Positions 9,388 through 23,234 of a stretch of 24,000 nucleotides of DNA are shown one piece after another (within the stretch, counting starts at the first letter, position 1; every line of letters starts with the position of its first letter). The notes below the pieces were generated by a model. That model made no database searches, was not told the origin of the DNA, and was given only the letters and a program-made list of their open reading frames with translations. Position numbers and translations under genes: made by a program. The DNA is from Candidatus Borrarchaeum weybense (lineage in GTDB: Archaea > Asgardarchaeota > Sifarchaeia > Borrarchaeales > Borrarchaeaceae): NCBI GenBank assembly GCA_019057385.1, contig JAHQJS010000004.1, positions 340,535 to 364,534 on the forward strand, written 5' to 3'.

Positions 9388-9624
9388 TTATATTCGTGAT
9401 AATTCAGAAGTAAGGCTCTTCAGTACAGGATCGGTAATATCTTCATCTTGAATTTGTGAAATTTCAGTTATTTTTATGAATTTTCTTGGAACTTTGTGTT
9501 TACTCCCTATAAGGGATAAAACGTTTTCAATTGCATGGGTTTCTTTTAGGGCTTTGATCTCTTTGGCGAATGGGATCTTTTTACTCTTTGCTCTATAGAC
9601 GCCCTTAATCCGAAATACTGACAA
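9388..9624 (-). CDS. rplX: Ribosomal protein LX (L18Ae/eL20 family)
   Basis: 'SVFRIKGVYRAKSKKIPFAKEIKALKETHAIENVLSLIGSKHKVPRKFIKITEISQI' matches the LX pattern. The ORF track extends to 9672. A TTG at 9624 preceded by GAGGTG at 6-nt spacing gives the canonical 'MSVFRIKG' N-terminus, so I prefer the shorter model. Confidence 0.8.
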   Translation of the reverse strand: MSVFRIKGVYRAKSKKIPFAKEIKALKETHAIENVLSLIGSKHKVPRKFIKITEISQIQDEDITDPVLKSLTSELSRI

Positions 9625-9870
9625 TAAAAACACCTCTATTTTCAGTGAAACCTTTTGTGCACATCTTAACATATTATCTTTTAACCTTTTACATTTGGGT
9701 TGAGAATTTTTGCTTTGTAAAAAAACTCTTGCTGTGAAAATTGGTTTTTAAATTGCACAATGAAAAGCTTAATAATTTTTATCCTAGCAAGGTCATTCAT
9801 CTTGCAAAGACTTCGTTCTGAGTGATATTTATCTGGCGAGAGTCCTTTCTGAGAGTAAAATGGATTAACA

Positions 9871-10551
9871 GTGTACCTGGTGAACTGTGTGGTTATTGTT
9901 CAGAATAACTTTAATGGAATCGCCTCAGTCGGCATAATCTCACTGGCTACTGATAGTTATGTATTGGTTCCAAGAAACCTTCCAAAAAGAGTAGTCAATA
10001 AGCTACATGAGGTATTTGCTGCGCCAATTATCAAAACTTCAATTTATCAATCGCATCTAATTGGAATATTAGCCGCTGGTAATAAATTTGGTCTATTAAC
10101 TCATTTTCTTTCTGATGATGATGAGATTGAATATCTTAAGAAGGAAATTGGTATCCCTGTTGAAAGAATGAAAAGTAAACTAACTGTCGGAAATTGCATT
10201 CTTGCTAATGACAAAGGCGCAATTGCTGCGGATGAATTTGGTAAAGAAGACATTAAGCAAATCACTGATATTCTCAATGTAGAAGTTTTGCAAGGAAAGA
10301 TCGTCAATTCATCTTTAATCGGATCACTTGGAGCAGCAAGTAATGAAGGCGCTATGGTGCACCCATTAGCTACCGAAAAGGAATTAGAATGGATTAGCGA
10401 AGGCTTGAAAGTACATTCTGATATTGGGACCGTTAACAGAGGTGTTCCATATGTCTCAACAGGAATCTTAGTTAATTCACAGGGGTGCGTTACAGGCGAA
10501 GAGACTACAGGTCCTGAATTAGTAAGAATCTCACAAACATTCGCACTTTAA
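9871..10551 (+). CDS. eif6: Translation initiation factor 6 (aIF6/eIF6)
   Basis: 'NFNGIASVGIISLATDSYVLVP', the five-fold pseudo-repeat and 'GTVNRGVPYVSTGILVNSQGCVTGEETTGPEL' are typical eIF6. The start is ambiguous, with GTG at 9871, 9880 or 9889. Confidence 0.9.
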   Translation: MYLVNCVVIVQNNFNGIASVGIISLATDSYVLVPRNLPKRVVNKLHEVFAAPIIKTSIYQSHLIGILAAGNKFGLLTHFLSDDDEIEYLKKEIGIPVERMKSKLTVGNCILANDKGAIAADEFGKEDIKQITDILNVEVLQGKIVNSSLIGSLGAASNEGAMVHPLATEKELEWISEGLKVHSDIGTVNRGVPYVSTGILVNSQGCVTGEETTGPELVRISQTFAL

Positions 10552-10589
10552 ACTCTTATTTATTATTGAGTATATAGTAATTACATTAA

Positions 10590-10607
10590 TTTTTGAAAAA
10601 ACAAAAA
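10590..10607. terminator. Bidirectional oligo-T region between the convergent aIF6 and L31e genes
   Basis: A plus-strand T5 (10590-10594) is immediately followed by A6-C-A5 (10596-10607), which reads TTTTTGTTTTTT on the minus strand. Confidence 0.4.
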
Positions 10608-10633
10608 GAGAAATATCTATTGAAATAAAATGT

Positions 10634-10921
10634 TCATTTTGCTAAGTAAACTTCACATATCCCTTCGGTGTCCTTCACTGCCCTAACTCTTATTTTTCTC
10701 GGAGGTTTTTCGATACCTCGCTTCCAAAGTTCTTCATTGAGTTCTGGATCAATTCGAATGTCAATAGGATTTACTTTCATATGACGTTCTATGTAGTGTT
10801 TCAGAATCTTTATCGCACGAACTGTGCGTTTATGCCGTGGGGCGTGCTTTACGTCACGAAATGGAATAGTATATAACTCTTCTTTTTCAATTTCTTCATC
10901 TAATATTTCTTCATCTGACAT
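10634..10921 (-). CDS. rpl31e: Ribosomal protein L31e (eL31)
   Basis: 'YTIPFRDVKHAPRHKRTVRAIKILKHYIERHMK...NEELWKRGIEKPPRKIRVRAVK' is the L31e signature. Confidence 0.9.
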   Translation of the reverse strand: MSDEEILDEEIEKEELYTIPFRDVKHAPRHKRTVRAIKILKHYIERHMKVNPIDIRIDPELNEELWKRGIEKPPRKIRVRAVKDTEGICEVYLAK

Positions 10922-10942
10922 TTCGTTTACGCATCCTTTCTA

Positions 10943-11098
10943 CTATTTCTTTAAGCGTGTACGTCGCCAATGCCTACTTTTAGGATGTGTACGCACTCTT
11001 CTTCGAGTTCTAACAACTATCCATGCAGGAACGCTTCTTGATTGCTTCAGTGCTTTTCCTAGTCGCAATTTTTTTCCTAAAGGTTTATATCGTGCCAA
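10943..11098 (-). CDS. rpl39e: Ribosomal protein L39e (eL39), 51 aa; absent from the supplied ORF track
   Basis: Hand translation of the minus strand from the TTG at 11098 gives '(M)[50 protein letters not shown]', with TAG at 10943-10945. An AGGAG motif lies upstream. An in-frame TTG six nt earlier is an alternative start. Confidence 0.85.
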
Positions 11099-11111
11099 TG
11101 ACAAGAATCTC

Positions 11112-11456
11112 CTATTTTCGTGTGATTTTAATATCTCTTTGTTTATCAGTCAATCTTCGTAAAATGGTTTTTAATTGGTCATCAGTTAATACATTGCCAA
11201 GTCGTCCAGCTTGTGCAAGTTGAATTAATTGAAGTTCAACCGCTTCAGCCAATTCGGGTTTTACAATTTTTATTCGATTCAATCGTTCTCTTGCTTCAGG
11301 AGTCAATATCTGTCGGAGTATTGCTTGTTTCTGGGCTTCTAGTTCCTGTTGCATTTGTGCTTGTCGTTCTTGTTCTCCTTGTTGCTGTTGTAACTCAAGC
11401 ATACGTCTTTTCTTTAATTCTTCAAGTTCTTCATCCGACAAGGTTTTTCCCTCCAA
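11112..11456 (-). CDS. PDCD5/TFAR19-like DNA-binding protein
   Basis: '[37 protein letters not shown]...[10 protein letters not shown]' plus a Q/E-rich N-terminus. Its position between S19e and L39e is conserved. Confidence 0.8.
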
Positions 11457-11471
11457 GTTAAAAAATCATTC

Positions 11472-11903
11472 TTACTTTTTTAATTGCTTTAAAATCTTGT
11501 TAGCAGCACGATCCATAAAAGAACGACCTTTAGCCGATAATGTTCGGCCAGAAGTATCATTTGGCTTCTCAATAAAACCTAACGCCTCTAATTGTTGTAA
11601 ACCTAATCTAATTATCTTCCCAGCGCCTTTTCTAAAATGCTCTCTTCTATTGCCTTTGCGTAGTCTTCCTCCATACTTTATTCGAAGACGATTGACTCCA
11701 ATTGGGCCATTAATATATACTTTACGTAGCAGGCTAGCTAGCCTGACATACCACCAATTAGGATTGGTCGGTGCCTTCTCCCGAAAGACGCCAGTTTTAA
11801 CAAAGGACGCCCATGCTGGAGGTTTAAGCTCATCTATGTTCTTAAGTTCACTCGCAACTTCTTTATTTAGTATAGCCGCTGGCACTTCATAAATGGTAAC
11901 CAT
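11472..11903 (-). CDS. rps19e: Ribosomal protein S19e (eS19)
   Basis: 'PAWASFVKTGVFREKAPTNPNWWYVRLASLLRKVYINGPIGVNRLRIKYGG' is typical S19e. The ATG at 11903 is preceded by GGTGAG at 7-nt spacing. The ORF track's GTG at 11915 adds 4 residues. Confidence 0.9.
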   Translation of the reverse strand: MVTIYEVPAAILNKEVASELKNIDELKPPAWASFVKTGVFREKAPTNPNWWYVRLASLLRKVYINGPIGVNRLRIKYGGRLRKGNRREHFRKGAGKIIRLGLQQLEALGFIEKPNDTSGRTLSAKGRSFMDRAANKILKQLKK

Positions 11904-11939
11904 GAAACATCTCACCGATACGAGATTTTGTTCCTCTAT

Positions 11940-11977: not shown

Positions 11978-12194
11978 CATTTGCCAGTTGTCAATTTGAG
12001 CCTTATTTTTTCCCTTTATCTCTAAAGAGAAGAAAAAGGAAACCAATATCATCTTTCTTAAATTCCCAATTTAAATAAACTATCCTTTTCGTTATACAAC
12101 AAGACCAAGACTGTAAATAAAATTGCGAGATTTTTGCGAAAAATAAGAATTGATTCTTTAATATCTGTATAGACTATTTATTTTGCTTAGAATC

Positions 12195-12220
12195 AAAAAT
12201 TCAAAAAAAGGATAAAAAAA
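12195..12220 (-). terminator. Oligo-T tracts downstream of the SPFH gene
   Basis: The minus strand reads TTTTTTTATCCTTTTTTTGAATTTTT, 68-93 nt after the stop at 12288. Confidence 0.35.
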
Positions 12221-12287: not shown

Positions 12288-13859
12288 TTAACCTAACTGT
12301 GCTTTGAGCTCTGCAATCTCCTTCTTCAGGCGTGCAACTAAATCTGAGTGCTTCTCCTCGGAGATTTTTCCATCAAGGAGCAGATCATCTGCTTTTTCTA
12401 TTCTTTCTTGACGCTCTTTTATCTCATTTTTAATTTTACCTGTATCAGTAGACGTGGTTGGAATCGTTGATGGCCCTGCGACTGGAACAACACCAGCTCC
12501 GGTGACTATTGTTGGGGATGCATCAATTGAGACACCTTTCTTACCTAGTTCACGATATCCTTCAGCTTTTACAAGATCCTCAACACTTATGCCCGCTTCT
12601 TTGGCTCGTAAATACAACTCTGCGTCAATACCTTTCATTGTAGCGTACTTTTCAGCTTCTATTCGTGCAAGTGCTTCATCTTCAGCAGTTGATGAGAGTG
12701 CTTCATATTTTGCTTTCATAGCTTCTAATTCTGCTAGTTTTAACTCCTTTTCTTTTTCAAGCATCGCAAGTTCTGTTTCGGAACTTATCATTTTCGCCTT
12801 GGCAGTTTTTTGTATAACTAATTCTTCGTATTCTTCAGCTCCAGCGATGGTTGCTATTTCAAGTCGCGCTAACTGGACTCCCCAATCGCCAAATGTATTC
12901 TCAGCGATTACTTTTGCTTTAGTGGAAATACCTTCGCGATTTGAAAACACATCTTCTAATGGATAGGTGGATAATGTTTGCGTTACGATTCCTCTCATGG
13001 AGTCTTTTGCCCAGTTATCAAATTCATCAGGCGCTAATTTCTCCTTACCACCAATAAAGTTTTGAACGAGGCGTTTAGGGTCACTAATTTTGATGTACGC
13101 CGTGCCTGAGGCTCCGATCTTTATCTTATCTTGTGTATAGATACGTTTAGGAACTCCCCAGGGAATTTTATATTCACGTGTATTTACCCATACGACTTCA
13201 GTGCCAACTAGTGCACTGTAGAGTTTTCGTACATCCATTCCGCTGAAGATTTTGTGAAGTAGTCCTTTAGAATCCTCTTTTCTCCACGCTTTGTCCATTT
13301 TCCCTGAAGCTTCTAATTCTTGCGCACGTTCTCTCGCTTTTTCTTCAATTTTTCTCTCTTCTTCTGGTATTAAATCATATACCCCTGCGCTTAATTCTCC
13401 TATCAAAGCTCCCTGTTTATAGAACAATGCTTTTTCATACGATCGTACAACAAATCCTCGAATGGGTTCCTGAAGTCTCGCATCATATCCACACTTCTTG
13501 CAGAAAGGCTGACCTGCTTTAATTGTAGAAACTCGTTCGGTAGGTATATCTGCACCACATTTTCTACAGAATTGTTGTCCTTTATTTGCAAGTGTTCCAC
13601 ATTTTGGACATTTCCTTGCTTCTGCTAGTTTTCTACATCCCGGACAGTGCATATCATAAATTGGCGGAGCATTCATAATATCTTCATATGTAAGTCGATG
13701 TATTATTCCAGGATATACTTGGTGGTTCCAAATGTAGGTATATCGATCTCTACCCCATTCTTTTTCAATTACCTCATCAGCGTCTAATCCTTTGTCTGCT
13801 ACTCTTTTAACATCCTTGTCCACTTTTCTGGTTCTAAACCATTCTTTAATCGACGACAT
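12288..13859 (-). CDS. Double Zn-ribbon, SPFH (Band_7_1-type) and coiled-coil protein, 523 aa
   Basis: Four CxxC pairs at aa 72-123 (nt 13491-13646): 'CPGC..CPKC..CRKC..CKKC'. The SPFH-like core is 'VVWVNTREYKIPWGVPKRIYTQDKIKIGASGTAYIKISDPKRLVQNFIG...GVQLARLEI', as in the Zn-ribbon-containing stomatin/prohibitin-like family. The C-terminal ~170 aa are E/K/A-rich heptad coiled coil. A GGAGAGGATGGAGAG SD precedes the ATG, 17 nt after the upstream stop. Confidence 0.7.
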   Translation of the reverse strand: MSSIKEWFRTRKVDKDVKRVADKGLDADEVIEKEWGRDRYTYIWNHQVYPGIIHRLTYEDIMNAPPIYDMHCPGCRKLAEARKCPKCGTLANKGQQFCRKCGADIPTERVSTIKAGQPFCKKCGYDARLQEPIRGFVVRSYEKALFYKQGALIGELSAGVYDLIPEEERKIEEKARERAQELEASGKMDKAWRKEDSKGLLHKIFSGMDVRKLYSALVGTEVVWVNTREYKIPWGVPKRIYTQDKIKIGASGTAYIKISDPKRLVQNFIGGKEKLAPDEFDNWAKDSMRGIVTQTLSTYPLEDVFSNREGISTKAKVIAENTFGDWGVQLARLEIATIAGAEEYEELVIQKTAKAKMISSETELAMLEKEKELKLAELEAMKAKYEALSSTAEDEALARIEAEKYATMKGIDAELYLRAKEAGISVEDLVKAEGYRELGKKGVSIDASPTIVTGAGVVPVAGPSTIPTTSTDTGKIKNEIKERQERIEKADDLLLDGKISEEKHSDLVARLKKEIAELKAQLG

Positions 13860-13876
13860 TTCTCTCCATCCTCTCC

Positions 13877-15037
13877 TTATCCTTTATATAGGCTTGGTAC
13901 ATACCAAGCAGTGCCTCCCGCATAACTAGAATCACGTCGGGTAACTCCTTCTTGCTCAAGTGTTTGTAAAGCTCGCATTACACGTTCATTGTCCCATTGT
14001 GTTTTTACCAACAAATCTTCAAGGGAAATATATCCATTTGAGGTTGCAGCAAGCTCAAGTACTGTTCGTGAATCTTCTGTCATGCCAACTGGCACAAATT
14101 CGATTAGTTTTAAGCCTGAAGGTAATACATGTATATCAGCTATCATTCCTGATTTATCTAATTTCTTAACTGCTTTTTCGACATCATTTACATTGAATTC
14201 TATGTCTAATCTACGTTCACGCATTTTCATGTAGAGATCTGCGAGCGAACAGATGCCTCCTGTTTCATTTTTGATCATATCTTTGAGTTTAAGAATTTCT
14301 TCTCCAAGTTTCTCATAGTAGTCGCCTTTGCCAAAAAGTCGTGGTTTTTTCGCTTTTTCGTCTTCCATTGCTTTTCTAACATCACTGACTTTATCCTTTT
14401 CTCGATGTCTCATTTGCCATAGTTTTTCGTCAAGAATTTCTTCTATATTTTTGTATACACCATGCCATCTACCAGGTATTGCTTGGTAAATGTGATCTGC
14501 TGGGGTCACACCTAACAATAAATCATTCCTCTTTTTGAAAAGACTCACTACATCATCCATATCACTCTTTATTTCTCTTAGAGCTTTCTTAGCGTCTTCA
14601 GCATTACCATCTTCTACCTTAGGAAGTAAAGTTTCTCGTAATATTTCAGCCATTGCATCCACTTCAAATAACGTAAGCATATCTATCCCAACAAGGTTTT
14701 TGAACGTATCTGATTCTAACGTAACATCAAACTTTGTTGGCCCTTCAGCAATTTTGCTTTGTTTTTGGAGTTTTTCAAATTCGAAAATGGGAGCCATCAA
14801 CTCAACGTCTTGTTGAAATCTGTTCAATTTCTTCCTTAATCTTTCGCCTAACTTTAATACATCATCGTTACCTATGTCAACCGAAGCTTTCTGGATCTCT
14901 CCTAATAACTCATCTGAGTTTGTTAGACTATTTAACATCTTTTCTTTTAAGACACGATCATAATTTTCTCGCATCTCTTTCCTCCAACCAGGCTTAATCC
15001 ATTTGAAATAATTCTTAATTTTTCTAAGCCTTTCCAT
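13877..15037 (-). CDS. ESCRT-II Vps22/SNF8 (EAP30-domain) homologue with a long N-terminal helical extension, 386 aa
   Basis: aa 238-386 are colinear with human SNF8. 'GDYYEKLGEEIL' matches 'GDFYYELGVQII'. 'TGGICSLADL' matches 'NGGLITLEEL'. 'VEKAVKKLDKSG..IHVLPSGLKLIEFVP' matches 'LIRAIKKLKALGTGFGIIPVGGTYLIQSVP'. 'SNGYISLEDLLVKTQWDNERVMRALQTLEQEGV...WYVPSLY' matches 'KNGYVTVSEIKASLKWETERARQVLEHLLKEGL...YWLPALF'. An AGGAGTG SD precedes the ATG. Confidence 0.85.
   Translation of the reverse strand: MERLRKIKNYFKWIKPGWRKEMRENYDRVLKEKMLNSLTNSDELLGEIQKASVDIGNDDVLKLGERLRKKLNRFQQDVELMAPIFEFEKLQKQSKIAEGPTKFDVTLESDTFKNLVGIDMLTLFEVDAMAEILRETLLPKVEDGNAEDAKKALREIKSDMDDVVSLFKKRNDLLLGVTPADHIYQAIPGRWHGVYKNIEEILDEKLWQMRHREKDKVSDVRKAMEDEKAKKPRLFGKGDYYEKLGEEILKLKDMIKNETGGICSLADLYMKMRERRLDIEFNVNDVEKAVKKLDKSGMIADIHVLPSGLKLIEFVPVGMTEDSRTVLELAATSNGYISLEDLLVKTQWDNERVMRALQTLEQEGVTRRDSSYAGGTAWYVPSLYKG
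13880..14326 (-). other. Tandem winged-helix EAP30 core of the Vps22-like protein
   Basis: This is the region of colinearity with SNF8 described above (aa 238-386). Confidence 0.8.
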
Positions 15038-15070
15038 GGGTCACACTCCTTTTTTTCATTTTTTTTCTAT

Positions 15071-16558
15071 TTAAACCGACTTTTGTCTTTCAAGTTTCAT
15101 ACTTAATGTGCTTCCACACGTTGGACACTTGAATTTCTCGGGCCCTACCCAATCTACGCTTTCCTCGCTCAAAGGCGCACCACATTCTGAACAGGTAGTG
15201 GGAACGGTCTTTATTAGTACTACTTCTTCTTTCTTCTCGATGATTCTCTCCTTAATGATCATTCCAGTTGGTTTGGAATTATTCCCTCCCGAAACTGCAG
15301 CTGCAGCTGTAACTGGATCTACGATATCCATATACGCTCTACCAATCTCAATAGTAAGAAGTTCGCTGTAAATAGCAAATTTTTGAGATTTAAAGATTTT
15401 CGGGGCATTAAAAAGAATCTCAGTGGGATTCAAAGAATATAATCCACCAATTGTTGGTGTAACTTTAAAATCAACAGCTCTATACGTTCCAGGACGAATT
15501 CTTTCTATTTGCTTCCCATTACCATTTCCCACTTCAAACTCAGATGGGAAATCTGTTTTGACCTCAATATTAGTAACTTCGAAATCAGATTTATTACGGA
15601 TATCTACCGAAATAAGCCCTTCATGGTCAATATATAACGCCTTAGCTTCTCTTTCTATCTCAATGTTAGGTAAGACGAACACTGGCGTGAGATTGACATC
15701 TGTAGATGTTGGTTGAAAGTTCCCTGCAGTTATTGTTGCTTGTGCACGTATCGCAAATACACCAACATCACCTGAAGGCAGCTCTAAATCTATCTGTTTA
15801 CTTTCATCTTTCTTTAATGCAACTGAAATGTCTTCATTCAAAACAGGAAAGTGTAATTTAAACTCAGTAGGTAATTTTGCTGTAATAGTCAAAGTAAGTG
15901 GGATCTTATTTCCAACTCTAATTGCTTCAACAGTTTCAACATTTATACTTGGTAATACCCTGAGAATGGGAATTCCCATTCTGTTACAAACCGGGCAACC
16001 AGTGTTCACCAAATTTCTGTTACATAATACTGGATGGGCTCCAGCTTGAACCAGTTTCTTCTTGTTCAGTTGATTGAAGACGTCAGCCAGGGTATCTTCA
16101 ACGATTTTTGGCTTTGATTTTGCAGATTCCCACCCACAAGCTACACACATCACTTTATAATCAGGAGCATCTGAGTCAAAGACGCCTCCTTTTTGAAATT
16201 GCGTAAGAACCAGTTGCTTACCACATTGGGGACACAAGGAGTTTAATATAGACTGACATTTAGCATTAGGTGGCGCTGATTGGAATCCTATTCCACAGGA
16301 CGGACAGAATGAAATTTTTTTCGATGCACAGTGTTTGCAAAACACGCCGTGTTCAGGACAGTAAAAGTTAGCGAATTTACCGCAGTGTACGCAAATATAA
16401 TTAGCTAATTTTTCTTTTTTCTTACCTTCTTCTATAAGCAGCATTGAAGCCCTTGTTGTTGGAGTTGGTTTAGAGAGAGAAAATAGTGGTGAACCACAAA
16501 AAGTACAGAATCTTAGACCTTCTCTTAGTGTTCTTCTGCATCTAGGACATGCCGGCAA
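15071..16558 (-). CDS. Multi-Zn-ribbon protein with two central beta-sandwich-like domains and a C-terminal Zn ribbon, 495 aa
   Basis: TTG start at 16558 with a GGAGG 9 nt upstream. The N-terminal ~195 aa contain at least 6 CxxC pairs ('CPRC..CTFC', 'CVHC..CPEH..CKHC..CPSC', 'CPQC', 'CVAC', 'CPVC'). The middle is beta-rich ('LISVDIRNKSDFEVTNIEVKTDFP...RIRPGTYRAVDFKVTP', CARDB/Ig-like pattern). The C-terminal ribbon is C456xxC459...C478xxC481 (nt 15116-15193). Confidence 0.6.
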   Translation of the reverse strand: MPACPRCRRTLREGLRFCTFCGSPLFSLSKPTPTTRASMLLIEEGKKKEKLANYICVHCGKFANFYCPEHGVFCKHCASKKISFCPSCGIGFQSAPPNAKCQSILNSLCPQCGKQLVLTQFQKGGVFDSDAPDYKVMCVACGWESAKSKPKIVEDTLADVFNQLNKKKLVQAGAHPVLCNRNLVNTGCPVCNRMGIPILRVLPSINVETVEAIRVGNKIPLTLTITAKLPTEFKLHFPVLNEDISVALKKDESKQIDLELPSGDVGVFAIRAQATITAGNFQPTSTDVNLTPVFVLPNIEIEREAKALYIDHEGLISVDIRNKSDFEVTNIEVKTDFPSEFEVGNGNGKQIERIRPGTYRAVDFKVTPTIGGLYSLNPTEILFNAPKIFKSQKFAIYSELLTIEIGRAYMDIVDPVTAAAAVSGGNNSKPTGMIIKERIIEKKEEVVLIKTVPTTCSECGAPLSEESVDWVGPEKFKCPTCGSTLSMKLERQKSV

Positions 16559-16594
16559 TATTCTAGTCCTCCAGCTTTTGTTAGTACCACTATT

Positions 16595-16611
16595 GTAGTA
16601 CTACGTATAAA
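16595..16611 (-). promoter_or_regulatory. TATA-like TTTATAC (16605-16611) with the adjacent perfect 10-bp palindrome GTAGTACTAC (16595-16604) upstream of the three-gene operon
   Basis: On the minus strand the palindrome lies immediately downstream of the TATA-like box and ~40 nt upstream of the TTG start. GTAGTA-like half sites recur nearby (16583-16588 'AGTACC', 16622-16627 'GTAGTA'). Confidence 0.3.
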
Positions 16612-16973: not shown

Positions 16974-19946
16974 TTGACAAAAATGGGAGTTTCATCGTAC
17001 TTTTCAGGAAGAAAAATAATTGTCTACGTTATGACGGCGTTTGTCGCATGGTTTGCTTGGCTGGATAATATTATTGACTACTTATATTTCCTAGGTATCT
17101 ACGCAGATACATGGCCTTACTACGATGTCTTCACTTTTCCCGACTTCGCATATAATGTCACGCTTGCACTACCGCTCATCGTCTTTGTAATGACGCTGTT
17201 ACCAGAAGCTGAAAAATGGAAAAATATTTTGCGTACCATGGGTATCATTGTATTAATTACTGCGCTGCTAATGTTAGTATCAACAATAAATTTTGTTTTT
17301 TACAGACCTTTCATTACGGCTGTTGTTTTAATTGTCATTGCAGGGATATTCACACTTCTTAATTATCCGCTTAAGGATAAGACCTTTTGGGGACATGAAC
17401 CTTGGCAGTGGGCAGTTAATTGGTTCGCGTGTGGAGTTTTTTTTGCATTAATTGGCTTTCTGTTACCTCCAGCTGTATTTACTGGGTCTCTTGAATATCC
17501 AGTTCTTATAGGACCTTATGTCTGGGCTCTAGTGTTCGCTGTTGGCGGTATACTAGCACTAATTCTCGGTTTCATCATGCCGGTTGAAACCGGGCTTGTT
17601 GAAGGTTTAATTGTTGGTGTGTTTGGTGCGATAGGTACACTCGCTGGTTTGTGGTTATTCTTCTGGGACACGGAAGTTATACCCCCCGACGGATGGTACA
17701 TTCAAATCTTAGTTCTATTCATAGTTGCTGGATTTGCTGGCGGGTTTTTCAACCAGTTTAACTTCACAAAATATATCATGAATTCGTTTCAAGACTTTAT
17801 CAAGATGAAACTAGTGTTAGCTCTATGGATCGTTGCGTTACTTGGAGCTCTCGTAGCGTATTTTGCAATCGCCATCTATTTCCCAAGTGGCGTTCAAAAC
17901 ATTGTTTTACGACAGGTGCTGATATTTCTCGTTCCGTCACTCATTGTAACACCCATAGCATTTCGTAGCGCCCATTTCTGGCAAGGGCTGCTCATTGGTA
18001 TCACTACGAGCCTTTCATATTTCAGTGCAATCATTCAAGGCGATCCATCTCTTGAGATCATCGGACTTATCGGTTTTCCATTTGTTCCGTTAATTCGCTA
18101 TTCACCTCCAGAGATATCTATCTATATAGTCAATGGTTTGCTACTGGTGTTAGCAGCTCTATGGGGTGGCCTTTGGGGTTCAGTTGGAAACTACTTTACA
18201 ATGGCATATACAGAGATTCCTAAGGAAGGAGATATCGCAAAGAGATTCCGAACAGCATATCTATTTCGTGACCTATGGTCAAACTACTTCATTCACGGAA
18301 AGAACAAAGAAAACGAATTTGAGAAAGCTGAACAATTCAAGTTAGATTTGGATTCGCTGGATCAAGTGTTAGACCTTGATCTAAAACAGACTGACTTACC
18401 AAGATTCGGTGAATACGTTTCTTTTCGCTACATGGACAGAAGTAAGCACTGGGAGACGGTTCCAAAGCCTTTGAAATCGATAGGCGTCCAGCCGATTAAG
18501 GGTTCAGAAAAAGCAAGAGTTGAATACAATAATAAGCACATCGGAGACTTTTATGATCCAAAGGTACTAGCTGACAAATATTCCCCAGTATGGAGTCCAA
18601 TGAATCTAGTATTTCAGCGTACGTTAGTTACCGCGATGCGTCCAATCATTTATGTGCTGTTGGCTGTCACATTGGTACTTGTAGGCTATAGTATCTACGT
18701 TAATTTCACAATAATTGGCGGTGGAATCGAATTTCTAGGACTTGCAGTTACCCAGATAGTTGTTCTTATCTTCTTGTTCTTCTTTATGTTCAAGTGGTAC
18801 GGCTTATTCGAACAAACAGTAAACGAGCGACCAGAAGCTTCATCTAGCTTCTTAATCGTAGCTTTAATCATTGTCGTAATCATGCTGTACATAACCTACA
18901 CGGTTAACAGTCTGGGGACGTTCATTGTTACAGGAGCTAACGAAGATCTGATCCGATTCGAAACTAACGGCCTATATATAATGCTTCTCATAAACTTCAT
19001 CTTAGGCATAGGATCTGTTCAAGTGCTTGGCTCAGAAAACATGAACCTCTATTGGTATGATAAGAGACCCGAAGCTTTTCCAATGCAATCTCAGGAAGAT
19101 GCGCCTGTCTGGCTTAAGGGGGACCAGTATTGGGTCTTTAGAAACCTCTTTTGGTGGCCCTTTGAGCTTACCGTTGGCAGTAAAGGATTGGAGCACGAGG
19201 ACTGGGAAAGGATCGAGTTGTGGGTCAATGCGAATACGGGGAAGCCAGAGTGGATCATCTCAGATTATCATTGGCGCGAACTTTGGTACAGGGTACCAGA
19301 ACTGGATGAAGAAATAATGATTAAGGTCACGTTTGCAACGAACTTCCACACCCCCATACCTTCGGTTCTCCGTAAGGCTACATATGACGCATTTGTAGCT
19401 CAATTCGAGGGTGCGGGAGCAGCGAGTGCGGTAATTAAATATGCAATTGGTGCAGCGAAATCAGGTATCGGTCGAGCGTTTGACTCAATTGGCTCTTCTT
19501 TAGGATTAAAGACTAAGGGCGAAAAGGAAAGAGAAGCAAAAACCACTGATGGAATGAAGGCTCGTACAAAAGTGCTTGGGAAATATTTTGTCGACGTTGG
19601 AGGTCCAGCTAAAGGGATCTGTGGAAAACAAATGGCAGCAACAGACTTTAACTTCTTTAGATATCCTTACGGATGTGCAAGTACTAAGAATGTTGGAACC
19701 GGCAGTGCAATTGATATTAAATACTTTTATAGGGAAAAAGATTTCGTTCCACCAATAAAAGAACCTGGGACGGGATTTAACCTAAAAGCAGAGAAAAAGG
19801 ATGGACTAGGGTTTAAAATATCAGTAGATGAGACAGCACCACAACTATGCATGGATTGTGGAGAACCATACAACGTACTTGAAACTGTAATTTGCCCGGC
19901 TTGTGGCGCAAACAATGAAGCGGCGTATAGAATGCCAATCGAATAA
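16974..19946 (+). CDS. Large polytopic membrane protein with soluble inserts and a C-terminal Zn ribbon, 990 aa
   Basis: aa 1-~410 and ~560-690 are dominated by long hydrophobic stretches, more than 12 predicted TM helices by eye. The soluble C-terminal region carries 'YWVFRNLFWWPFE...GLEHEDWERIELWVNANTGKPEWIISDYHW' (nt ~19128-19274) and the terminal ribbon 'CMDCGEPYNVLETVICPACG' (nt 19848-19904). The ATG at 16983 is an alternative, possibly leaderless, start, with ATATAAAA at 16952-16959. Confidence 0.7.
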   Translation: MTKMGVSSYFSGRKIIVYVMTAFVAWFAWLDNIIDYLYFLGIYADTWPYYDVFTFPDFAYNVTLALPLIVFVMTLLPEAEKWKNILRTMGIIVLITALLMLVSTINFVFYRPFITAVVLIVIAGIFTLLNYPLKDKTFWGHEPWQWAVNWFACGVFFALIGFLLPPAVFTGSLEYPVLIGPYVWALVFAVGGILALILGFIMPVETGLVEGLIVGVFGAIGTLAGLWLFFWDTEVIPPDGWYIQILVLFIVAGFAGGFFNQFNFTKYIMNSFQDFIKMKLVLALWIVALLGALVAYFAIAIYFPSGVQNIVLRQVLIFLVPSLIVTPIAFRSAHFWQGLLIGITTSLSYFSAIIQGDPSLEIIGLIGFPFVPLIRYSPPEISIYIVNGLLLVLAALWGGLWGSVGNYFTMAYTEIPKEGDIAKRFRTAYLFRDLWSNYFIHGKNKENEFEKAEQFKLDLDSLDQVLDLDLKQTDLPRFGEYVSFRYMDRSKHWETVPKPLKSIGVQPIKGSEKARVEYNNKHIGDFYDPKVLADKYSPVWSPMNLVFQRTLVTAMRPIIYVLLAVTLVLVGYSIYVNFTIIGGGIEFLGLAVTQIVVLIFLFFFMFKWYGLFEQTVNERPEASSSFLIVALIIVVIMLYITYTVNSLGTFIVTGANEDLIRFETNGLYIMLLINFILGIGSVQVLGSENMNLYWYDKRPEAFPMQSQEDAPVWLKGDQYWVFRNLFWWPFELTVGSKGLEHEDWERIELWVNANTGKPEWIISDYHWRELWYRVPELDEEIMIKVTFATNFHTPIPSVLRKATYDAFVAQFEGAGAASAVIKYAIGAAKSGIGRAFDSIGSSLGLKTKGEKEREAKTTDGMKARTKVLGKYFVDVGGPAKGICGKQMAATDFNFFRYPYGCASTKNVGTGSAIDIKYFYREKDFVPPIKEPGTGFNLKAEKKDGLGFKISVDETAPQLCMDCGEPYNVLETVICPACGANNEAAYRMPIE

Positions 19947-20899: not shown

Positions 20900-22279
20900 A
20901 TGGAAAAAATACTTGCCTGCATTGATGGGGAACATTACTTGCCTGTCACGAAAGCAGCGATAGAAAAGTTAAATAATTTGCCAGATCAAGAAGTTGTTGC
21001 TGCGTTATTTCTAGGCGGCACCGAAAAAATTGGAGATCTTAATGAAATTGAGCAATATCTGAACTTACCCATTTATTTTCTTGACAAAAAGAGTAATTTC
21101 GAGGCAGTTTTACACAAAATAATAAAGCAGCGCAAGATCAGTTCTGTCTTCGATCTTAGTGGTGAACCCGTAGTGACTTCTCTAGATCGAATGGATTTTG
21201 CGTGCGCCGCTTTATTTGAAGGATGTAGTTATAAAGGCGCAGACTTTCAATTCATCCCCATTGACTTTATAGAGGCTAGAAAACCTGTAATAAGTGTTAT
21301 TGGTACAGGAAAACGAGTTGGGAAAACAGCTGTTGCAGGTTACATCGCACGTGTTATCAAAGAAACGAAATGGACACCTTGCATACTTACTATGGGCAGA
21401 GGAGGTCCAGAAACTCCTGAATTAATCCGAGGCGACCAATTAATTGTCAACGCGGAATCTCTTCTTAAAGTTGCGCGACAGGGCAAACACGCAGCCAGTG
21501 ATTATTGGGAAGATGCTCTAACTAGTAGAGTTATAACGATAGGTTGCAGAAGATGTGCAGGAGGGTTAGCAGGGGCACCCTTCCTGGATAATGTAGAAGA
21601 AGGAGTCAGAACCGCTGAAAAATTAACTATCGATTTAATCATTGCCGAAGGTAGCGGACCAAGTATTCCTCCGGTGATGGCGCAGTCCTTTATTATTGTA
21701 ATCGGTGCACAACAACCTCTTTCTAACGTTAAAGATGTTTTGAATCCCTATAGGATAAAACTTTCCGAACTTGCGATTATAACAAATTGCGAAACTCCCC
21801 TTGCGACTGATGATAAGATTCAAGAAATCTGCACCACTATAAAAGAGATAAATCCAAAGATTAAGATATGTTGTACAACTTTTCGTCCTAAAGTTTTAGG
21901 TGATATACAGAATAAAACTGTGTTTTATGCAACAACAATGCCTATTGAAATGATGAAAACTGTAGTTAACTATTTAGAGCAAAATTACAATTGTAATATA
22001 TTAGGAACAAGTGTGCATCTCTCAGATCGCGCAAAATTGAAGGAAGATCTTAAGAAATTAACTCACGCGGATGTCCTTGTGACTGAATTAAAGGCTTCAG
22101 CTGTTGATGTAGCGACTAAGACTGCGTTTCAGATGGGAAAGCCAACTATCTATTGTGATAATGAACTCCAGATAGTGGAGTATGCTGACGGAGAAATAAA
22201 CTCAATTCAAGAGCTTGATTCGTATCTTATTGAGATCACAAAAAGGATTGTAAAAGGAGGGTCAACTACCCCACCCTAA
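20900..22279 (+). CDS. cpgS: Cyclic 2,3-diphosphoglycerate synthetase, 459 aa
   Basis: Colinear over its full length with my recollection of the Methanothermus fervidus cDPG synthetase: 'IDGEHYLPVT', 'GTGKRVGKTAVAGY', 'MGRGGPE.PE', 'HAASDYWEDALTSR..T.GCRRC.GG', 'EGSG..IPPV', 'TELKA.AVDVATK', 'IYCDN'. The size (~460 aa) also matches. Confidence 0.8.
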   Translation: MEKILACIDGEHYLPVTKAAIEKLNNLPDQEVVAALFLGGTEKIGDLNEIEQYLNLPIYFLDKKSNFEAVLHKIIKQRKISSVFDLSGEPVVTSLDRMDFACAALFEGCSYKGADFQFIPIDFIEARKPVISVIGTGKRVGKTAVAGYIARVIKETKWTPCILTMGRGGPETPELIRGDQLIVNAESLLKVARQGKHAASDYWEDALTSRVITIGCRRCAGGLAGAPFLDNVEEGVRTAEKLTIDLIIAEGSGPSIPPVMAQSFIIVIGAQQPLSNVKDVLNPYRIKLSELAIITNCETPLATDDKIQEICTTIKEINPKIKICCTTFRPKVLGDIQNKTVFYATTMPIEMMKTVVNYLEQNYNCNILGTSVHLSDRAKLKEDLKKLTHADVLVTELKASAVDVATKTAFQMGKPTIYCDNELQIVEYADGEINSIQELDSYLIEITKRIVKGGSTTPP

Positions 22280-22316
22280 AGGGGCGGGGGCTTTCAGAGA
22301 CAGGAGAGGCGAAGTA

Positions 22317-23234
22317 ATGGGAGTCAAACACATAACGATTAAAGCAGATAATTATGATTATCCCTACAGTAGGGGTTTGTTAGCAACACGCATGATGGTA
22401 ACTGGTCTCGACTTAGTTGATGCGTACAAAACAGCTGAAGCAATAGCTTTAGAACTGGAACTGCAGGATATCTGGGAACTTACAGAAGCCAAACTTAATG
22501 ATCTCGTCAGTGATATTCTCGAAAAAGAGGGCAAAATACTTCATGCTACTCGATATCGTAATTTTCTCAAATTTAAGAGTAGGCATGAACCTCTGATTAT
22601 TCTGATTAGCGGTGCTACAGGCATCGGTAAATCTACTATTGCACTGAATTTAGCGGCTCGATTAGCTATTAGTCACATAGTAGGAACTGATACTATCAGA
22701 GAAGTCATGCGTAAAGTATTATCTTCAGAATTAGTCCCTTCATTACATTCTTCCTCGTATGCTGCTCACAAATCTATGAAAGAATATGTAAGTCCAATTT
22801 ACAATAAAGTGATTATAGGCTTCGAGGAACAGGCGAGACTTGTCGTTTCTGGAATTGAAGCTGTGATTGCTCGTGCGTTGACAGAAGGAATAAGCATAAT
22901 TGTTGATGGCGTCCATATATTGCCCTCAATCATGGATCCAAAACTGCTCAAATCACCAAATATTATACCAGTGTTTCTTCATCTTTCAAACGCGGAGGAT
23001 CATATGATGAGATTCCACGAGCGTGCGAAAACGAAGGTAATGAGAAAACCACTTGAGGATTATTTAGAAAATTTTGATGGCATCCGAATAATACAGGACC
23101 ATCTTTTAGAGCAGGCAAGATTACATGGTATCCCGTTAATCGAAAACATGCTAATCGAAACTACCATTAGAAAGATTTTGGATATAGTTTTTGAACGCAT
23201 TGAAAAGCTTATAACAACACCATTAAAAACCTGA
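22317..23234 (+). CDS. 2-phosphoglycerate kinase, 305 aa
   Basis: The N-terminal ATP-cone-like 'YPYSRGLLATRMMVTGLDLVDAYKTAEAIALEL', the P-loop 'ILISGATGIGKSTIA' (nt ~22610-22636) and 'GTDTIREVMR' are typical of the 2PGK family. The gene lies immediately downstream of cpgS, with a GGAGAGG SD. Confidence 0.8.
   Translation: MGVKHITIKADNYDYPYSRGLLATRMMVTGLDLVDAYKTAEAIALELELQDIWELTEAKLNDLVSDILEKEGKILHATRYRNFLKFKSRHEPLIILISGATGIGKSTIALNLAARLAISHIVGTDTIREVMRKVLSSELVPSLHSSSYAAHKSMKEYVSPIYNKVIIGFEEQARLVVSGIEAVIARALTEGISIIVDGVHILPSIMDPKLLKSPNIIPVFLHLSNAEDHMMRFHERAKTKVMRKPLEDYLENFDGIRIIQDHLLEQARLHGIPLIENMLIETTIRKILDIVFERIEKLITTPLKT

Follow-up and report, generated by a model that had tools for sequence, protein, structure and literature searches.

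In Asgard archaea, the canonical ESCRT-II subunit Vps22 (asCOG cog.002769; Hatano 2022; Makarova 2024) is a protein of ~240 aa in which a helix precedes a Vps22/SNF8-type tandem winged helix; a steadiness-box fusion has been described, and the gene is co-directed with the Vps23/Vps28 and E2 genes. Asgard genomes were reported to have one Vps22/36-like gene each (Hatano 2022), while several EAP30 paralogues or families are also on record (Makarova 2024, PMC10936438; Eme 2023). The closest published precedents for the locus described here are the ESCRT-system SPFH links presented by Makarova et al. (2024, mBio, PMC10936438). Among these, the Meth_adaptin loci of Methanosalsum and its relatives encode an SPFH-coiled-coil-Zn-ribbon protein and a Zn-ribbon/Ig-like protein near ESCRT-type proteins; Vps4 and ESCRT-III are the defining genes of these loci, which also contain adaptin-appendage (i.e., a Zn-ribbon protein with Ig and TBP domains), GOLD, and ProX genes. 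In Bacillus subtilis, the gene for the SPFH protein YdjI adjoins that for PspA (ESCRT-III superfamily), and YdjI is needed for membrane recruitment of PspA (Scholz 2021, as cited in Makarova 2024, PMC10936438).

SPFH genes are also co-transcribed with dedicated partners acting on membrane proteins in the HflK/C-FtsH and stomatin-NfeD operons (i.e., an SPFH cage with a protease). In eukaryotes, erlin1/2-RNF170 is an SPFH-scaffolded tagging platform in ERAD, and UFL1-DDRGK1 is a winged-helix-built UFM1 E3 at the ER that acts on ER-bound ribosomes. UFL1 and DDRGK1 are reportedly of Asgard origin (Picchianti 2023). Here, we analyzed a 24,000-nt stretch (hereafter, the window) of a Sifarchaeia/Borrarchaeum contig, in which an EAP30-family protein that we call "long Vps22" is encoded next to an SPFH protein; the two very probably form a distinct, conserved, and co-functional pair.

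Architecture of the locus

Three genes on the minus strand, separated by 33 and 17 nt, encode a multi-Zn-ribbon protein, an EAP30 protein, and an SPFH protein with Zn ribbons (genes 1 to 3; Table 1). The co-directional layout given in a preliminary description of this DNA was confirmed by the ORFs, as were, by direct reading, an SD-like site ahead of each gene, an upstream TATA-like box, and oligo-T tracts after the last gene; the T tracts are a plausible archaeal terminator. Genes of the translation apparatus adjoin the module in the window (S19e, L31e, and eIF6) and in one distant locus (L011; S27e and eIF2alpha).

Table 1. Features of the module and its surroundings, in window coordinates
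Feature	Position	Strand	Basis or remark
TATA-like hexamer TTTATA	16606..16611	-	~48 nt 5' of gene 1 start; direct sequence reading
SD-like GGAGG	16568..16572	-	TTG start of gene 1 9 nt on; direct sequence reading
Gene 1, 495-aa soluble multi-Zn-ribbon protein, TTG start	15071..16558	-	ORF; Pfam DZR 1.5e-9
Gene 1 aa 1-195, ~4 Zn ribbons (CPRC/CTFC, CVHC/CKHC/CPSC, CPQC/CVAC, CPVC)	15974..16558	-	Sequence motifs
Gene 1 aa ~200-410, putative tandem Ig-like beta-sandwich region	15329..15961	-	Sub-threshold Pfam matches only
Gene 1 aa 455-485, C-terminal Zn ribbon (CSEC...CPTC)	15104..15196	-	Pfam DZR best stretch 455-488
SD-like AGGAG	15046..15050	-	ATG of gene 2 8 nt on; direct sequence reading
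Gene 2, 386-aa long Vps22 (EAP30 family)	13877..15037	-	ORF, Pfam, AF2, Foldseek, profile comparison
Gene 2 aa 1-228, family-specific N-terminal helical bundle	14354..15037	-	AF2 model, pLDDT 83, pTM 0.80
Gene 2 aa 236-386, Vps22/SNF8-type tandem winged helices	13880..14332	-	Pfam EAP30, Foldseek, profile
SD-like GGAG	13864..13867	-	ATG of gene 3 4 nt on; direct sequence reading
Gene 3, 523-aa SPFH protein without TM helix, conserved partner of long Vps22	12288..13859	-	Pfam Band_7 1e-16, Band_7_1 8.5e-12
Gene 3 aa 70-125, double Zn ribbon, inserted	13485..13652	-	Pfam Zn_Ribbon_1 1.5e-7; alignment
Gene 3 aa 137-371, SPFH domain	12747..13451	-	Pfam; alignment; stomatin structures matched weakly, 1.6e-3
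Gene 3 aa 477-523, SHOCT-like C-terminal helix "DGxISEE..."	12291..12431	-	Conserved in 5/7 partners (alignment)
Oligo-T tracts T7, T7, T5	12194..12220	-	70-95 nt 3' of gene 3 stop; direct sequence reading
990-aa polytopic membrane protein with C-terminal Zn ribbon, divergently transcribed	16974..19946	+	Many hydrophobic segments; CMDC...CPAC at aa 959-977

The EAP30 match of gene 2 (Pfam, 6e-17; 62.5 bits; cut-off, 26.8) is restricted to aa 227 to 369. The AF2 model of the protein (mean pLDDT, 85) aligned with human SNF8 in Foldseek (2zme_A; E, 1e-7; rmsd, 2.1 A; 154 columns), which bears out the proposed colinearity of the two proteins across both winged helices. A long-form profile matched SNF8 (1.4e-23), yeast Vps22 (3e-9), and Vps36 (1e-8), and ESCRT-II subunits were both the best and the sole significant structural or profile matches of the winged helices; many transcription factors ranked below them in Foldseek. 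Like the canonical Asgard Vps22, the long form is above the EAP30 Pfam threshold and nearer to Vps22 than to Vps36. It differs from the canonical protein in its greater length and its 230-aa helical bundle without known relative (helices 19-55, 58-79, 110-142, 146-175, and 189-228). For this bundle, no PDB fold matched better than E 0.09, and no similarity to ESCRT-III/PspA was detectable. The N-terminal domain is common to ~15 to 20 clusters at 50% identity (jackhmmer) and is the defining feature of the long Vps22 family. No EAP30-SPFH fusion was found among 10 multidomain EAP30 proteins.

The gene 3 protein contains no hydrophobic segment, and none of the seven partner SPFH proteins checked has a TM helix. 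Its SPFH domain is broken by a charged insert of ~50 aa (aa 165 to 215), and the double Zn ribbon is an insert carried by none of the six aligned partners. The C-terminal helix of the partners yielded its own separate phmmer match, and SHOCT was detected by Pfam in one member of the partner family (4.7e-5). As in the YdjI-PspA arrangement, an SPFH gene lies beside a gene of an ESCRT-related family, and the match to Band_7_1 is to what we take to be the Pfam family of YdjI. The partner in that arrangement, however, is an ESCRT-III/PspA polymer, whereas here it is an ESCRT-II-type winged-helix adaptor. The locus shares with the HflK/C-FtsH and stomatin-NfeD operons an SPFH gene coupled to a dedicated partner but encodes no protease, and its SPFH protein lacks an N-terminal TM anchor.

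The gene 1 protein carries 10 CxxC motifs and no TM helix. Its description as a multi-Zn-ribbon beta-sandwich protein holds for the Zn ribbons, which are recognized by Pfam; the Ig-like beta-sandwich is weakly supported, because the matches that suggest it are all sub-threshold (aa ~200 to 410; NPCBM_assoc, 0.0019; TRAP_beta, 0.0023; DUF4097, 0.027), and this region had no match among PDB sequences. Orthologues of gene 1 (80 to 94% identity) were found in loci L001 to L003 only. The divergently transcribed membrane protein is a possible client or partner of the module. Its orthologues occur in L001 and L003, so that its conservation is limited to close relatives among those sampled. Multi-TM proteins with a terminal Zn ribbon likewise adjoin the pair in L004.

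Conservation and gene context of the pair

An SPFH gene lies directly 3' of the long Vps22 gene in all seven informative distant loci (L004, L005/6, L007-9, L010, L011, L013, and L019), with no change of order or orientation; the contigs look Asgard-derived. In the six that were aligned, the long Vps22 proteins are only 20 to 28% identical to that of the window. The partner SPFH proteins are mutually homologous (phmmer, 1e-19 to 1e-32) and have the N-terminal motif and the C-terminal helix in common. The window, L004, L007, L010, and L011 each encode one or more Zn-ribbon proteins. No homologue of gene 1 was detected by phmmer in the five distant loci scanned (L019 lay outside the scan). Since the long Vps22-SPFH adjacency recurs in 7/7 loci, and since the Zn-ribbon/beta protein and the Zn ribbons within the SPFH protein were observed in Sifarchaeia alone, what is conserved is the pair and not the triad that had been proposed. 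Our literature search found no paper describing this pair, in agreement with the view that the module is undescribed. The broader concept of ESCRT-SPFH coupling is not new, as a contextual link of this kind was already presented for Meth_adaptin and YdjI-PspA (Makarova 2024, PMC10936438).

The reported absence of ESCRT and ubiquitin-system genes from the 24 kb was upheld by Pfam: among the remaining ORFs of ≥90 aa, no Vps25, Vps28, Vps4, Snf7, E1, E2, or ubiquitin was detected. None was found in ~10 kb past the right edge of the window (L016) or within ±10 kb of the B. yapensis orthologue either. A canonical 240-aa Vps22 (P0008), in contrast, is encoded in a UQ_con-VPS28-EAP30 (i.e., E2-Vps28-Vps22) cluster without an SPFH gene.

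Read family-wide, however, the separation of the pair from ubiquitin-type systems does not hold. The clusters that surround the pair in L007 and L019 encode a Prok-JAB protease, an E1 of the ThiF type (1.7e-51), a UFC1-like E2, and a small protein that ends in Gly-X and is a Ubl candidate. In the PDB, the profile of this E2 matched essentially UFC1 alone (3e-5), with the catalytic Cys motif aligned. The Ubl candidate, which in L007 is fused to E2, had redesigned ubiquitin as its best PDB match (E, 0.19) and no significant sequence match to Ufm1. Elsewhere, PCI- or E3_UFM1_ligase (UFL1)-like winged-helix proteins neighbor the pair (L011, L004, and L005), and RING-like Cys motifs occur near it in L011. 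No Ubl, E1, E2, or JAB homologue was found in the window or in the sampled Sifarchaeia loci, and the Ubl link is thus an extrapolation from two of the seven relatives. With these neighbors, the relatives of the module may, by analogy, follow the same logic as erlin1/2-RNF170 and UFL1-DDRGK1 (i.e., a membrane scaffold, winged-helix adaptors, and Ubl conjugation). The resemblance of long Vps22 itself to UFL1/DDRGK1 (a weak Foldseek match of the EAP30 model to the chimera 8b9x_B; E, 0.019) is probably that of a generic winged-helix fold, and the window, unlike the eukaryotic systems, encodes no Ubl enzymes.

Explanations of the module

The long Vps22 is probably a paralogue distinct from the short form, on the basis of architecture and gene context, not of a resolved phylogeny. 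The preliminary description, which called it a paralogue, is supported by the N-terminal domain, the SPFH linkage, and the E2-Vps28-Vps22 context of the short form, but not by a neighbor-joining tree of the winged-helix region, in which long and short forms do not separate cleanly. The gene 2 product could instead be the organism's own, and possibly only, ESCRT-II Vps22, working with Vps25, ESCRT-III, and Vps4 from other parts of the genome. The SPFH protein would then merely target canonical ESCRT-II to membrane microdomains, and the module would therefore be part of the classical pathway, contrary to the proposed independence from it. In line with this explanation, the winged-helix pair is equally near to a canonical short Vps22 (L014, 4.9e-36) and to the nearest long form (4.8e-37), SPFH-ESCRT-III links are already known, Borrarchaeota encode Vps4 elsewhere in the genome (Makarova 2024 Table S1, PMC10936438), and the report of one Vps22/36-like gene per genome agrees with it. 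However, the N-terminal domain and the SPFH neighbor are both retained across the seven distant loci, no ESCRT gene was found in the window or in the flanks scanned, two long copies stand in tandem in L019, and several EAP30 paralogues are on record; we consider this explanation rather unlikely. A derivation from the euryarchaeal Meth_adaptin system, as a reduced relative whose local Vps4/ESCRT-III were lost or never present in the Sifarchaeia locus, appears improbable. The Methanosalsum architectures, compared by description only, do resemble genes 3 and 1, and TRAP_beta-type Ig matches are also reported from ESCRT neighborhoods (Makarova 2024, PMC10936438). Against this, the other long Vps22-SPFH loci lack the Zn ribbons and gene 1, which look like a recent Sifarchaeia addition rather than an ancestral trait, the Vps4, ESCRT-III, GOLD, and ProX genes are all absent here, and no Vps22-type double winged helix is part of the Meth_adaptin description.

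DNA or RNA binding is a classic function of winged helices, and the double winged helix might act on nucleic acid or the ribosome as a regulator or translation-linked factor, tethered to the membrane by the SPFH protein and unrelated to vesicle-type sorting. The transcription factors among the lower Foldseek matches, the translation genes next to the module, and the action of UFL1-DDRGK1 on ribosomes would fit such a role, but the significant matches are to ESCRT-II subunits alone, and the translation neighbors are part of a gene string that is conserved widely in archaea and are missing at the other five loci. We regard this role as very improbable. A fortuitous adjacency of three functionally unrelated genes has a negligible chance of being correct: SPFH genes make up roughly 1 in 1,000 genes, the pair is maintained at independent loci despite the low protein identity, and the spacers are very short and contain SD-like sites. 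Chance adjacency is effectively refuted by the 7/7 conservation.

We give about an even chance to the whole of the explanation that we prefer, namely, a conserved two-protein module with the mechanism proposed below. The module consists of a long Vps22 (N-terminal helical bundle and Vps22-type double winged helix) and a peripheral SPFH protein that has a coiled coil and ends in a SHOCT-like helix but contains no TM helix. Sifarchaeia would have elaborated it with Zn ribbons, two of them inserted in the SPFH protein, and with the upstream multi-Zn-ribbon/Ig-like protein and the divergent polytopic membrane protein with its terminal Zn ribbon. The mechanism, which we infer and hold only tentatively, starts from an SPFH protein that would form a ring or cage at the cytoplasmic face of the membrane, like other SPFH proteins. 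The long Vps22 would dock on it, probably via the N-terminal bundle. It would probably do so in dimeric form, which has been reported for the Vps22 of Heimdall and Loki, and its double winged helix may form the platform to which winged-helix partners or ubiquitin-like conjugation machinery bind. With corralling by the SPFH protein and such a platform combined, membrane proteins in the microdomain could therefore be tagged, recognized (here, by the Zn ribbons), and sorted or removed. The output route would be either Vps25, ESCRT-III, and Vps4 encoded elsewhere or a Ufm1-like pathway.

The three-gene operon and its EAP30 product

Three genes lie in a row on the reverse strand of the window, with spacers of 33 nt and 17 nt, and encode a 495-aa multi-Zn-ribbon protein (gene 1), a 386-aa EAP30 protein (gene 2), and a 523-aa SPFH protein (gene 3). 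An SD-like GGAG or GGAGG can be read in the sequence 4 to 9 nt ahead of the start codon of each gene, as can a TTTATA hexamer ~48 nt 5' of gene 1 and T7, T7, and T5 tracts 3' of gene 3. No gene for Vps25, Vps28, Vps4, a Snf7-type protein, E1, E2, or ubiquitin was found in the 24-kb window, in the ~10 kb past its right edge (L016), or within 10 kb on either side of the EAP30 orthologue of Candidatus Borrarchaeum yapensis. Since the layout, the signals, and the missing ESCRT, E1, E2, and ubiquitin genes were all verified, the observation made in the preliminary description (i.e., a tight three-gene operon in a window free of ESCRT and ubiquitin genes) is confirmed.

Gene 2 matches EAP30 (PF04157) at aa 227 to 369 (62.5 bits, cut-off 26.8, E = 6e-17), and its aa ~236 to 386 form a Vps22-type double winged helix with a helix preceding it. 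The AF2 model (pLDDT, 85) superposes on human SNF8 (2zme_A; Foldseek E = 1e-7; rmsd, 2.1 A; 154 columns; 28% identity), in agreement with the colinearity with SNF8 noted earlier, and both the family score and the tandem winged helices superposable on Vps22 place gene 2 in PF04157. The N-terminal part (aa 1 to ~228) is predicted with confidence to fold as a helical bundle (pTM, 0.80); it has no Pfam match, and Foldseek gave no relative in the PDB with E below 0.09. An ESCRT-III/PspA-like reading of this bundle (cf. CdvB, which joins ESCRT-III to a winged helix) is not supported: Snf7 and PspA Pfam matches are nil, and the best Foldseek matches of the isolated domain are designed helical repeats (E = 0.09).

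Word-indexed homologue searches with the EAP30 and SPFH proteins returned only orthologues of at least 83% identity. Those of gene 2 (83 to 94% identity) come from the MAGs Ca. Borrarchaeum yapensis, Borrarchaeota Yap75, and "Promethearchaeota DZ3M.366"; Borrarchaeota are placed within Sifarchaeia by Eme et al. (2023), and the window accordingly derives from an Asgard archaeon of the Borrarchaeum/Sifarchaeia lineage. The orthologues of gene 1 are found in close Sifarchaeia relatives only. Its product carries ten CxxC motifs (i.e., about five Zn ribbons) flanking a 200-aa stretch in which Ig-like signals are weak, and a PDB sequence search gave no match. Of its earlier characterization as a multi-Zn-ribbon beta-sandwich protein, the Zn ribbons stand, while the beta-sandwich comes down to sub-threshold Ig-like Pfam matches.

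Pairing of long Vps22 and SPFH genes

When 1.84 billion cluster representatives were searched exhaustively with HMMER, 271 EAP30 relatives were recovered, most of them ~240 aa long, and a subset of 330 to 390 aa that can be aligned end to end. We refer to the forms with the extra N-terminal helical bundle as long Vps22. A jackhmmer search with the N-terminal 228 residues found this domain in about 15 to 20 clusters at 50% identity, and a profile built from the long forms alone matched SNF8 (1.4e-23), yeast Vps22 (3e-9), and Vps36 (1e-8). Since a neighbor-joining (NJ) tree of the winged helices does not cleanly split long from short forms, we make no claim of long-form monophyly.

Neighboring genes were collected for eight of the long forms; one (L012) lies at a contig edge, and seven loci were informative (L004, L005/L006, L007-9, L010, L011, L013, and L019). 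In 7/7 of the informative loci, the gene immediately 3' of long Vps22 on the same strand encodes an SPFH protein, and the partner SPFHs are homologous to gene 3 (phmmer, 1e-19 to 1e-32), with an N-terminal motif and a C-terminal helix in common. Identity to gene 2 among six aligned long forms is only 20 to 28%, and the linkage is therefore ancient and selected. No EAP30-SPFH gene fusion (Rosetta-stone test) was seen among ten multidomain EAP30 proteins. We conclude that long Vps22 and SPFH very probably constitute a distinct, conserved, and co-functional pair. The order of these two genes is not peculiar to this contig. The module proposed in the preliminary description had three members, of which the pair is retained; gene 1 is not a conserved member, with no homologue in the five distant loci scanned for it.

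Gene 3 passes the SPFH family threshold (Band_7, 61.9 bits, cut-off 23.6, 1e-16; Band_7_1, 45.6 bits, cut-off 24, 8.5e-12). No hydrophobic window reaches the threshold for an N-terminal TM anchor in the style of stomatin, HflK/C, or prohibitin, either in gene 3 or in six other partners. The SPFH domain is followed by a long charged E/K/A-rich helical region, and there is a SHOCT-like conserved C-terminal helix. A double Zn ribbon (aa 70 to 125) and a ~50-aa charged insert of gene 3 are missing from the six aligned partner proteins. A search for relatives with the SPFH alignment returned only generic HflC-like proteins.

Genes surrounding the pair

The genes around the triad are ordinary. One flank carries S19e, a PDCD5-like DNA-binding protein, L31e, eIF6, LX, and prefoldin alpha, and the other a 990-aa polytopic membrane protein, GDPD, a CpgS-like protein, and 2-phosphoglycerate kinase. 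Translation genes adjoin the pair in two unrelated loci (i.e., the window and L011), which is probably a coincidence, although one to note since eukaryotic UFMylation is itself linked to the ribosome. The 990-aa protein is encoded divergently from the triad, belongs to no Pfam family, and ends in a cytosolic Zn ribbon (CMDC...CPAC); multi-TM proteins with terminal Zn ribbons likewise adjoin the pair at L004. The CpgS_N-like gene and the adjoining kinase gene (NF003259, 2e-93; 313 bits, under the 343-bit cut-off) look, in this Asgard genome, like a pair from the cyclic 2,3-diphosphoglycerate pathway. Further away, a 1336-aa protein fuses a Hel308/Ski2-type DEAD-box helicase (Pfam DEAD, 3e-26) to a C-terminal Cas1 (PF01867, 1e-7; TIGR00287, 9e-6) and is adjoined by a RAMP-family protein; no CRISPR array is present in the window. 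The G+C content is 0.44 to 0.48 at 2 to 5 kb of the window, against ~0.35 to 0.38 elsewhere. Since FtsY and OTCase occupy the syntenic position in B. yapensis, the helicase-Cas1 region may be an inserted element.

Positions of features in the window and in three distant loci that carry a long Vps22 gene (L007, L011, and L019)
Locus	Position	Strand	Feature
Window	75..884	-	RAMP-family protein
Window	1231..5241	-	Helicase-Cas1 fusion
Window	9388..11915		S19e/L31e/eIF6/LX
Window	16558..12288	-	Genes 1 to 3
Window	16974..19946	+	990-aa polytopic membrane protein
Window	20900..23234	+	CpgS_N-like protein and 2-phosphoglycerate kinase
L007	4863..7714		Ubl-system cluster with the pair
L007	10197..16111		Five tandem paralogues
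L011	801..2080		S27e/eIF2alpha
L011	4860..8127		588-aa PCI protein to Roadblock/LAMTOR-like gene, after the pair
L019	590..2887		Tandem long Vps22 genes
L019	4505..7684		Ubl-system cluster with the pair

The accessory genes near the pair differ between loci and have themes in common. At L007 and L019, the pair lies inside a Ubl-system cluster encoding a ThiF-type E1 (1.7e-51), a Prok-JAB protease, an E2, and a conserved 384-aa protein whose C-terminus carries a Zn ribbon. The profile matches of this E2 in the PDB are essentially UFC1 only (3e-5), and its catalytic ICHDH aligns with the ICLTDH of UFC1. A Ubl candidate of ~90 aa with a Gly-X end is a separate gene in L019 and is fused to the E2 in L007; it gives no significant sequence match to Ufm1 and may resemble human Ufm1 at the C-terminus (...RGDVG-L). 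After the pair in L011 comes a 588-aa protein with a PCI domain (1.7e-10), E3_UFM1_ligase-like winged helices, and RING-like Cys clusters, followed by a 99-aa Zn-ribbon protein, a small GTPase of the Arf/Ras-like type, and, transcribed divergently, a Roadblock/LAMTOR-like gene. L004 encodes a multi-TM protein that combines a PCI-type winged helix with a Zn ribbon, and L005 encodes additional UFL1/PCI-like proteins. The tandem long Vps22s of L019 (348 and 346 aa; phmmer, 4e-117 to each other) are encoded 5' of the SPFH gene and hint at a heterodimeric stalk like Vps22/Vps36. The five paralogues of L007 (329 to 583 aa), directly 3' of the SPFH gene, each carry a signal-like segment at the N-terminus and a TM helix at the C-terminus and are possible clients or cargo.

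The tie of these relatives to UFC1-type conjugation is unexpected. UFC1 and UFM1 have been reported from eukaryotes only, with UFL1 and DDRGK1 traced to Asgards (Picchianti 2023); Ufm1 homologues in Asgards are reported by Koestlbacher (2026), and a term search of the main text of that article gave no hits for UBA5, UFC1, UFL1, or gene neighborhoods. No gene for a Ubl, a ThiF/UBA5-like E1, or a UFC1-type E2 is present in the window, and the Sifarchaeia loci sampled contain no homologues. The lack of ubiquitin-system genes noted previously holds for the window and not for the family, as the clusters of L007 and L019 show.

Relation to known systems and proposed function

Canonical Asgard Vps22 (cog.002769) is ~240 aa long and has a short N-terminal helical hairpin (the steadiness box; Makarova et al. 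2024, PMC10936438), whereas gene 2 has 386 aa and a 230-aa bundle found only in other long forms. The Vps28/Vps23/E2 or Vps25/ESCRT-III/Vps4 neighborhood of the canonical family is also missing around gene 2 (window, ~10 kb to its right, and +-10 kb in B. yapensis). P0008, a short canonical Vps22 of 240 aa, lies in a UQ_con (E2)-VPS28-EAP30 cluster without an SPFH gene; an E2-Vps28-Vps22-type order is the canonical arrangement (Hatano 2022; Makarova et al. 2024, PMC10936438). These differences bear on the alternative that gene 2 is the organism's canonical ESCRT-II subunit and the SPFH protein a targeting add-on. Its winged helices are equally close to canonical and to other long forms, and the NJ tree does not decide between them; we regard this alternative as somewhat unlikely.

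The closest published precedent is the Meth_adaptin ESCRT loci of Methanosalsum and relatives, which encode SPFH plus coiled-coil plus Zn-ribbon and Zn-ribbon plus Ig-like proteins (Makarova et al. 2024, PMC10936438). Gene 3, as an SPFH protein with a coiled coil and a Zn ribbon, is like the former in architecture. However, those loci contain Meth_adaptin-clade Vps4 and ESCRT-III, whereas the window ORFs have no AAA/Vps4 or Snf7 match. The second Meth_adaptin protein joins its Zn ribbon to an adaptin appendage (Ig plus TBP); gene 1, which gives sub-threshold Ig-like Pfam matches and no PDB sequence match, may or may not contain such a region. A reduced Meth_adaptin-like system is improbable. 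A nucleic-acid or ribosome-linked role of the module is similarly improbable, and gene adjacency by chance, set beside the pairing in every informative locus, is hardly credible.

The reading of long Vps22 and SPFH as a module of their own fits a known kind (i.e., an ESCRT-related adaptor with an SPFH scaffold), and what is new is an ESCRT-II paralogue in place of ESCRT-III/Vps4. The same paper (PMC10936438) notes "considerable diversity" of Asgard ESCRT-II paralogues, recalls the bacterial YdjI-PspA link, and lists in its tables, for Heimdall AB_125, a solo EAP30 gene that lies in no ESCRT cluster. Neither a long Vps22 family nor a fixed SPFH pairing is described there, in Hatano 2022, in the MK-D1 ESCRT-II preprint, or in the Heimdall cryo-ET preprint, which reports SPFH-like baskets, and full-text literature searches found neither. 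The long Vps22-SPFH module is real, conserved, and apparently undescribed, which partly supports the interpretation in the preliminary description, with the amendments that the unit is the pair, that the family is tied to Ubl systems in relatives, and that independence from the classical ESCRT pathway is at most a hypothesis.

The operon anatomy, the Vps22 fold, the family-specific N-terminal domain, the SPFH protein without a TM helix, the conserved pairing, and the recurrent Ubl, winged-helix, and Zn-ribbon neighbors were computed directly. From established traits of the SPFH and ESCRT-II families, we infer a possible mechanism. SPFH proteins assemble as oligomeric rings or cages attached to membranes, where they corral clients, the winged helices of ESCRT-II are protein-protein platforms, and the Zn ribbons (NZF) of Vps36 bind ubiquitin. 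Vps22 of Heimdall and Loki homodimerizes (Hatano 2022). The SPFH protein would assemble on the cytoplasmic face of the membrane, and long Vps22 would dock on this assembly via its N-terminal bundle, leaving the winged helices exposed. These may recruit winged-helix partners or Ubl machinery, so that corralled membrane proteins would be marked, recognized, or sorted; the Zn ribbons of Sifarchaeia would act as readers. We advance this mechanism as a whole only tentatively. In a more specific version, which we consider rather unlikely, a Ufm1-like conjugation system of Asgards would have the pair as its membrane platform (a scaffold-type E3 or receptor), and the pair would be a forerunner of UFL1-DDRGK1/erlin-E3 platforms. 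The ESCRT-II fold would then serve Ubl-dependent membrane-protein handling outside ESCRT-III/Vps4, with the Ubl enzymes of Sifarchaeia encoded elsewhere and the Zn ribbons as readers. If true, it would represent a prokaryotic forerunner of winged-helix/SPFH-based ER quality control.

Long Vps22 is a candidate partner for the SPFH "baskets" recently seen by cryo-ET on the plasma membrane of one Asgard. The repeated association with a UFC1-like E2/Ubl and with UFL1/PCI-like proteins offers a testable route to the origin of eukaryotic membrane quality-control and tagging platforms. Current descriptions give Asgard ESCRT-II one Vps22/36-like protein, acting with ESCRT-I, ubiquitin, and ESCRT-III. 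This single-protein picture would change with a further Vps22 family that is widely conserved and tied to an SPFH scaffold, and the ESCRT-II fold would gain an additional role in the archaea most closely related to eukaryotes.
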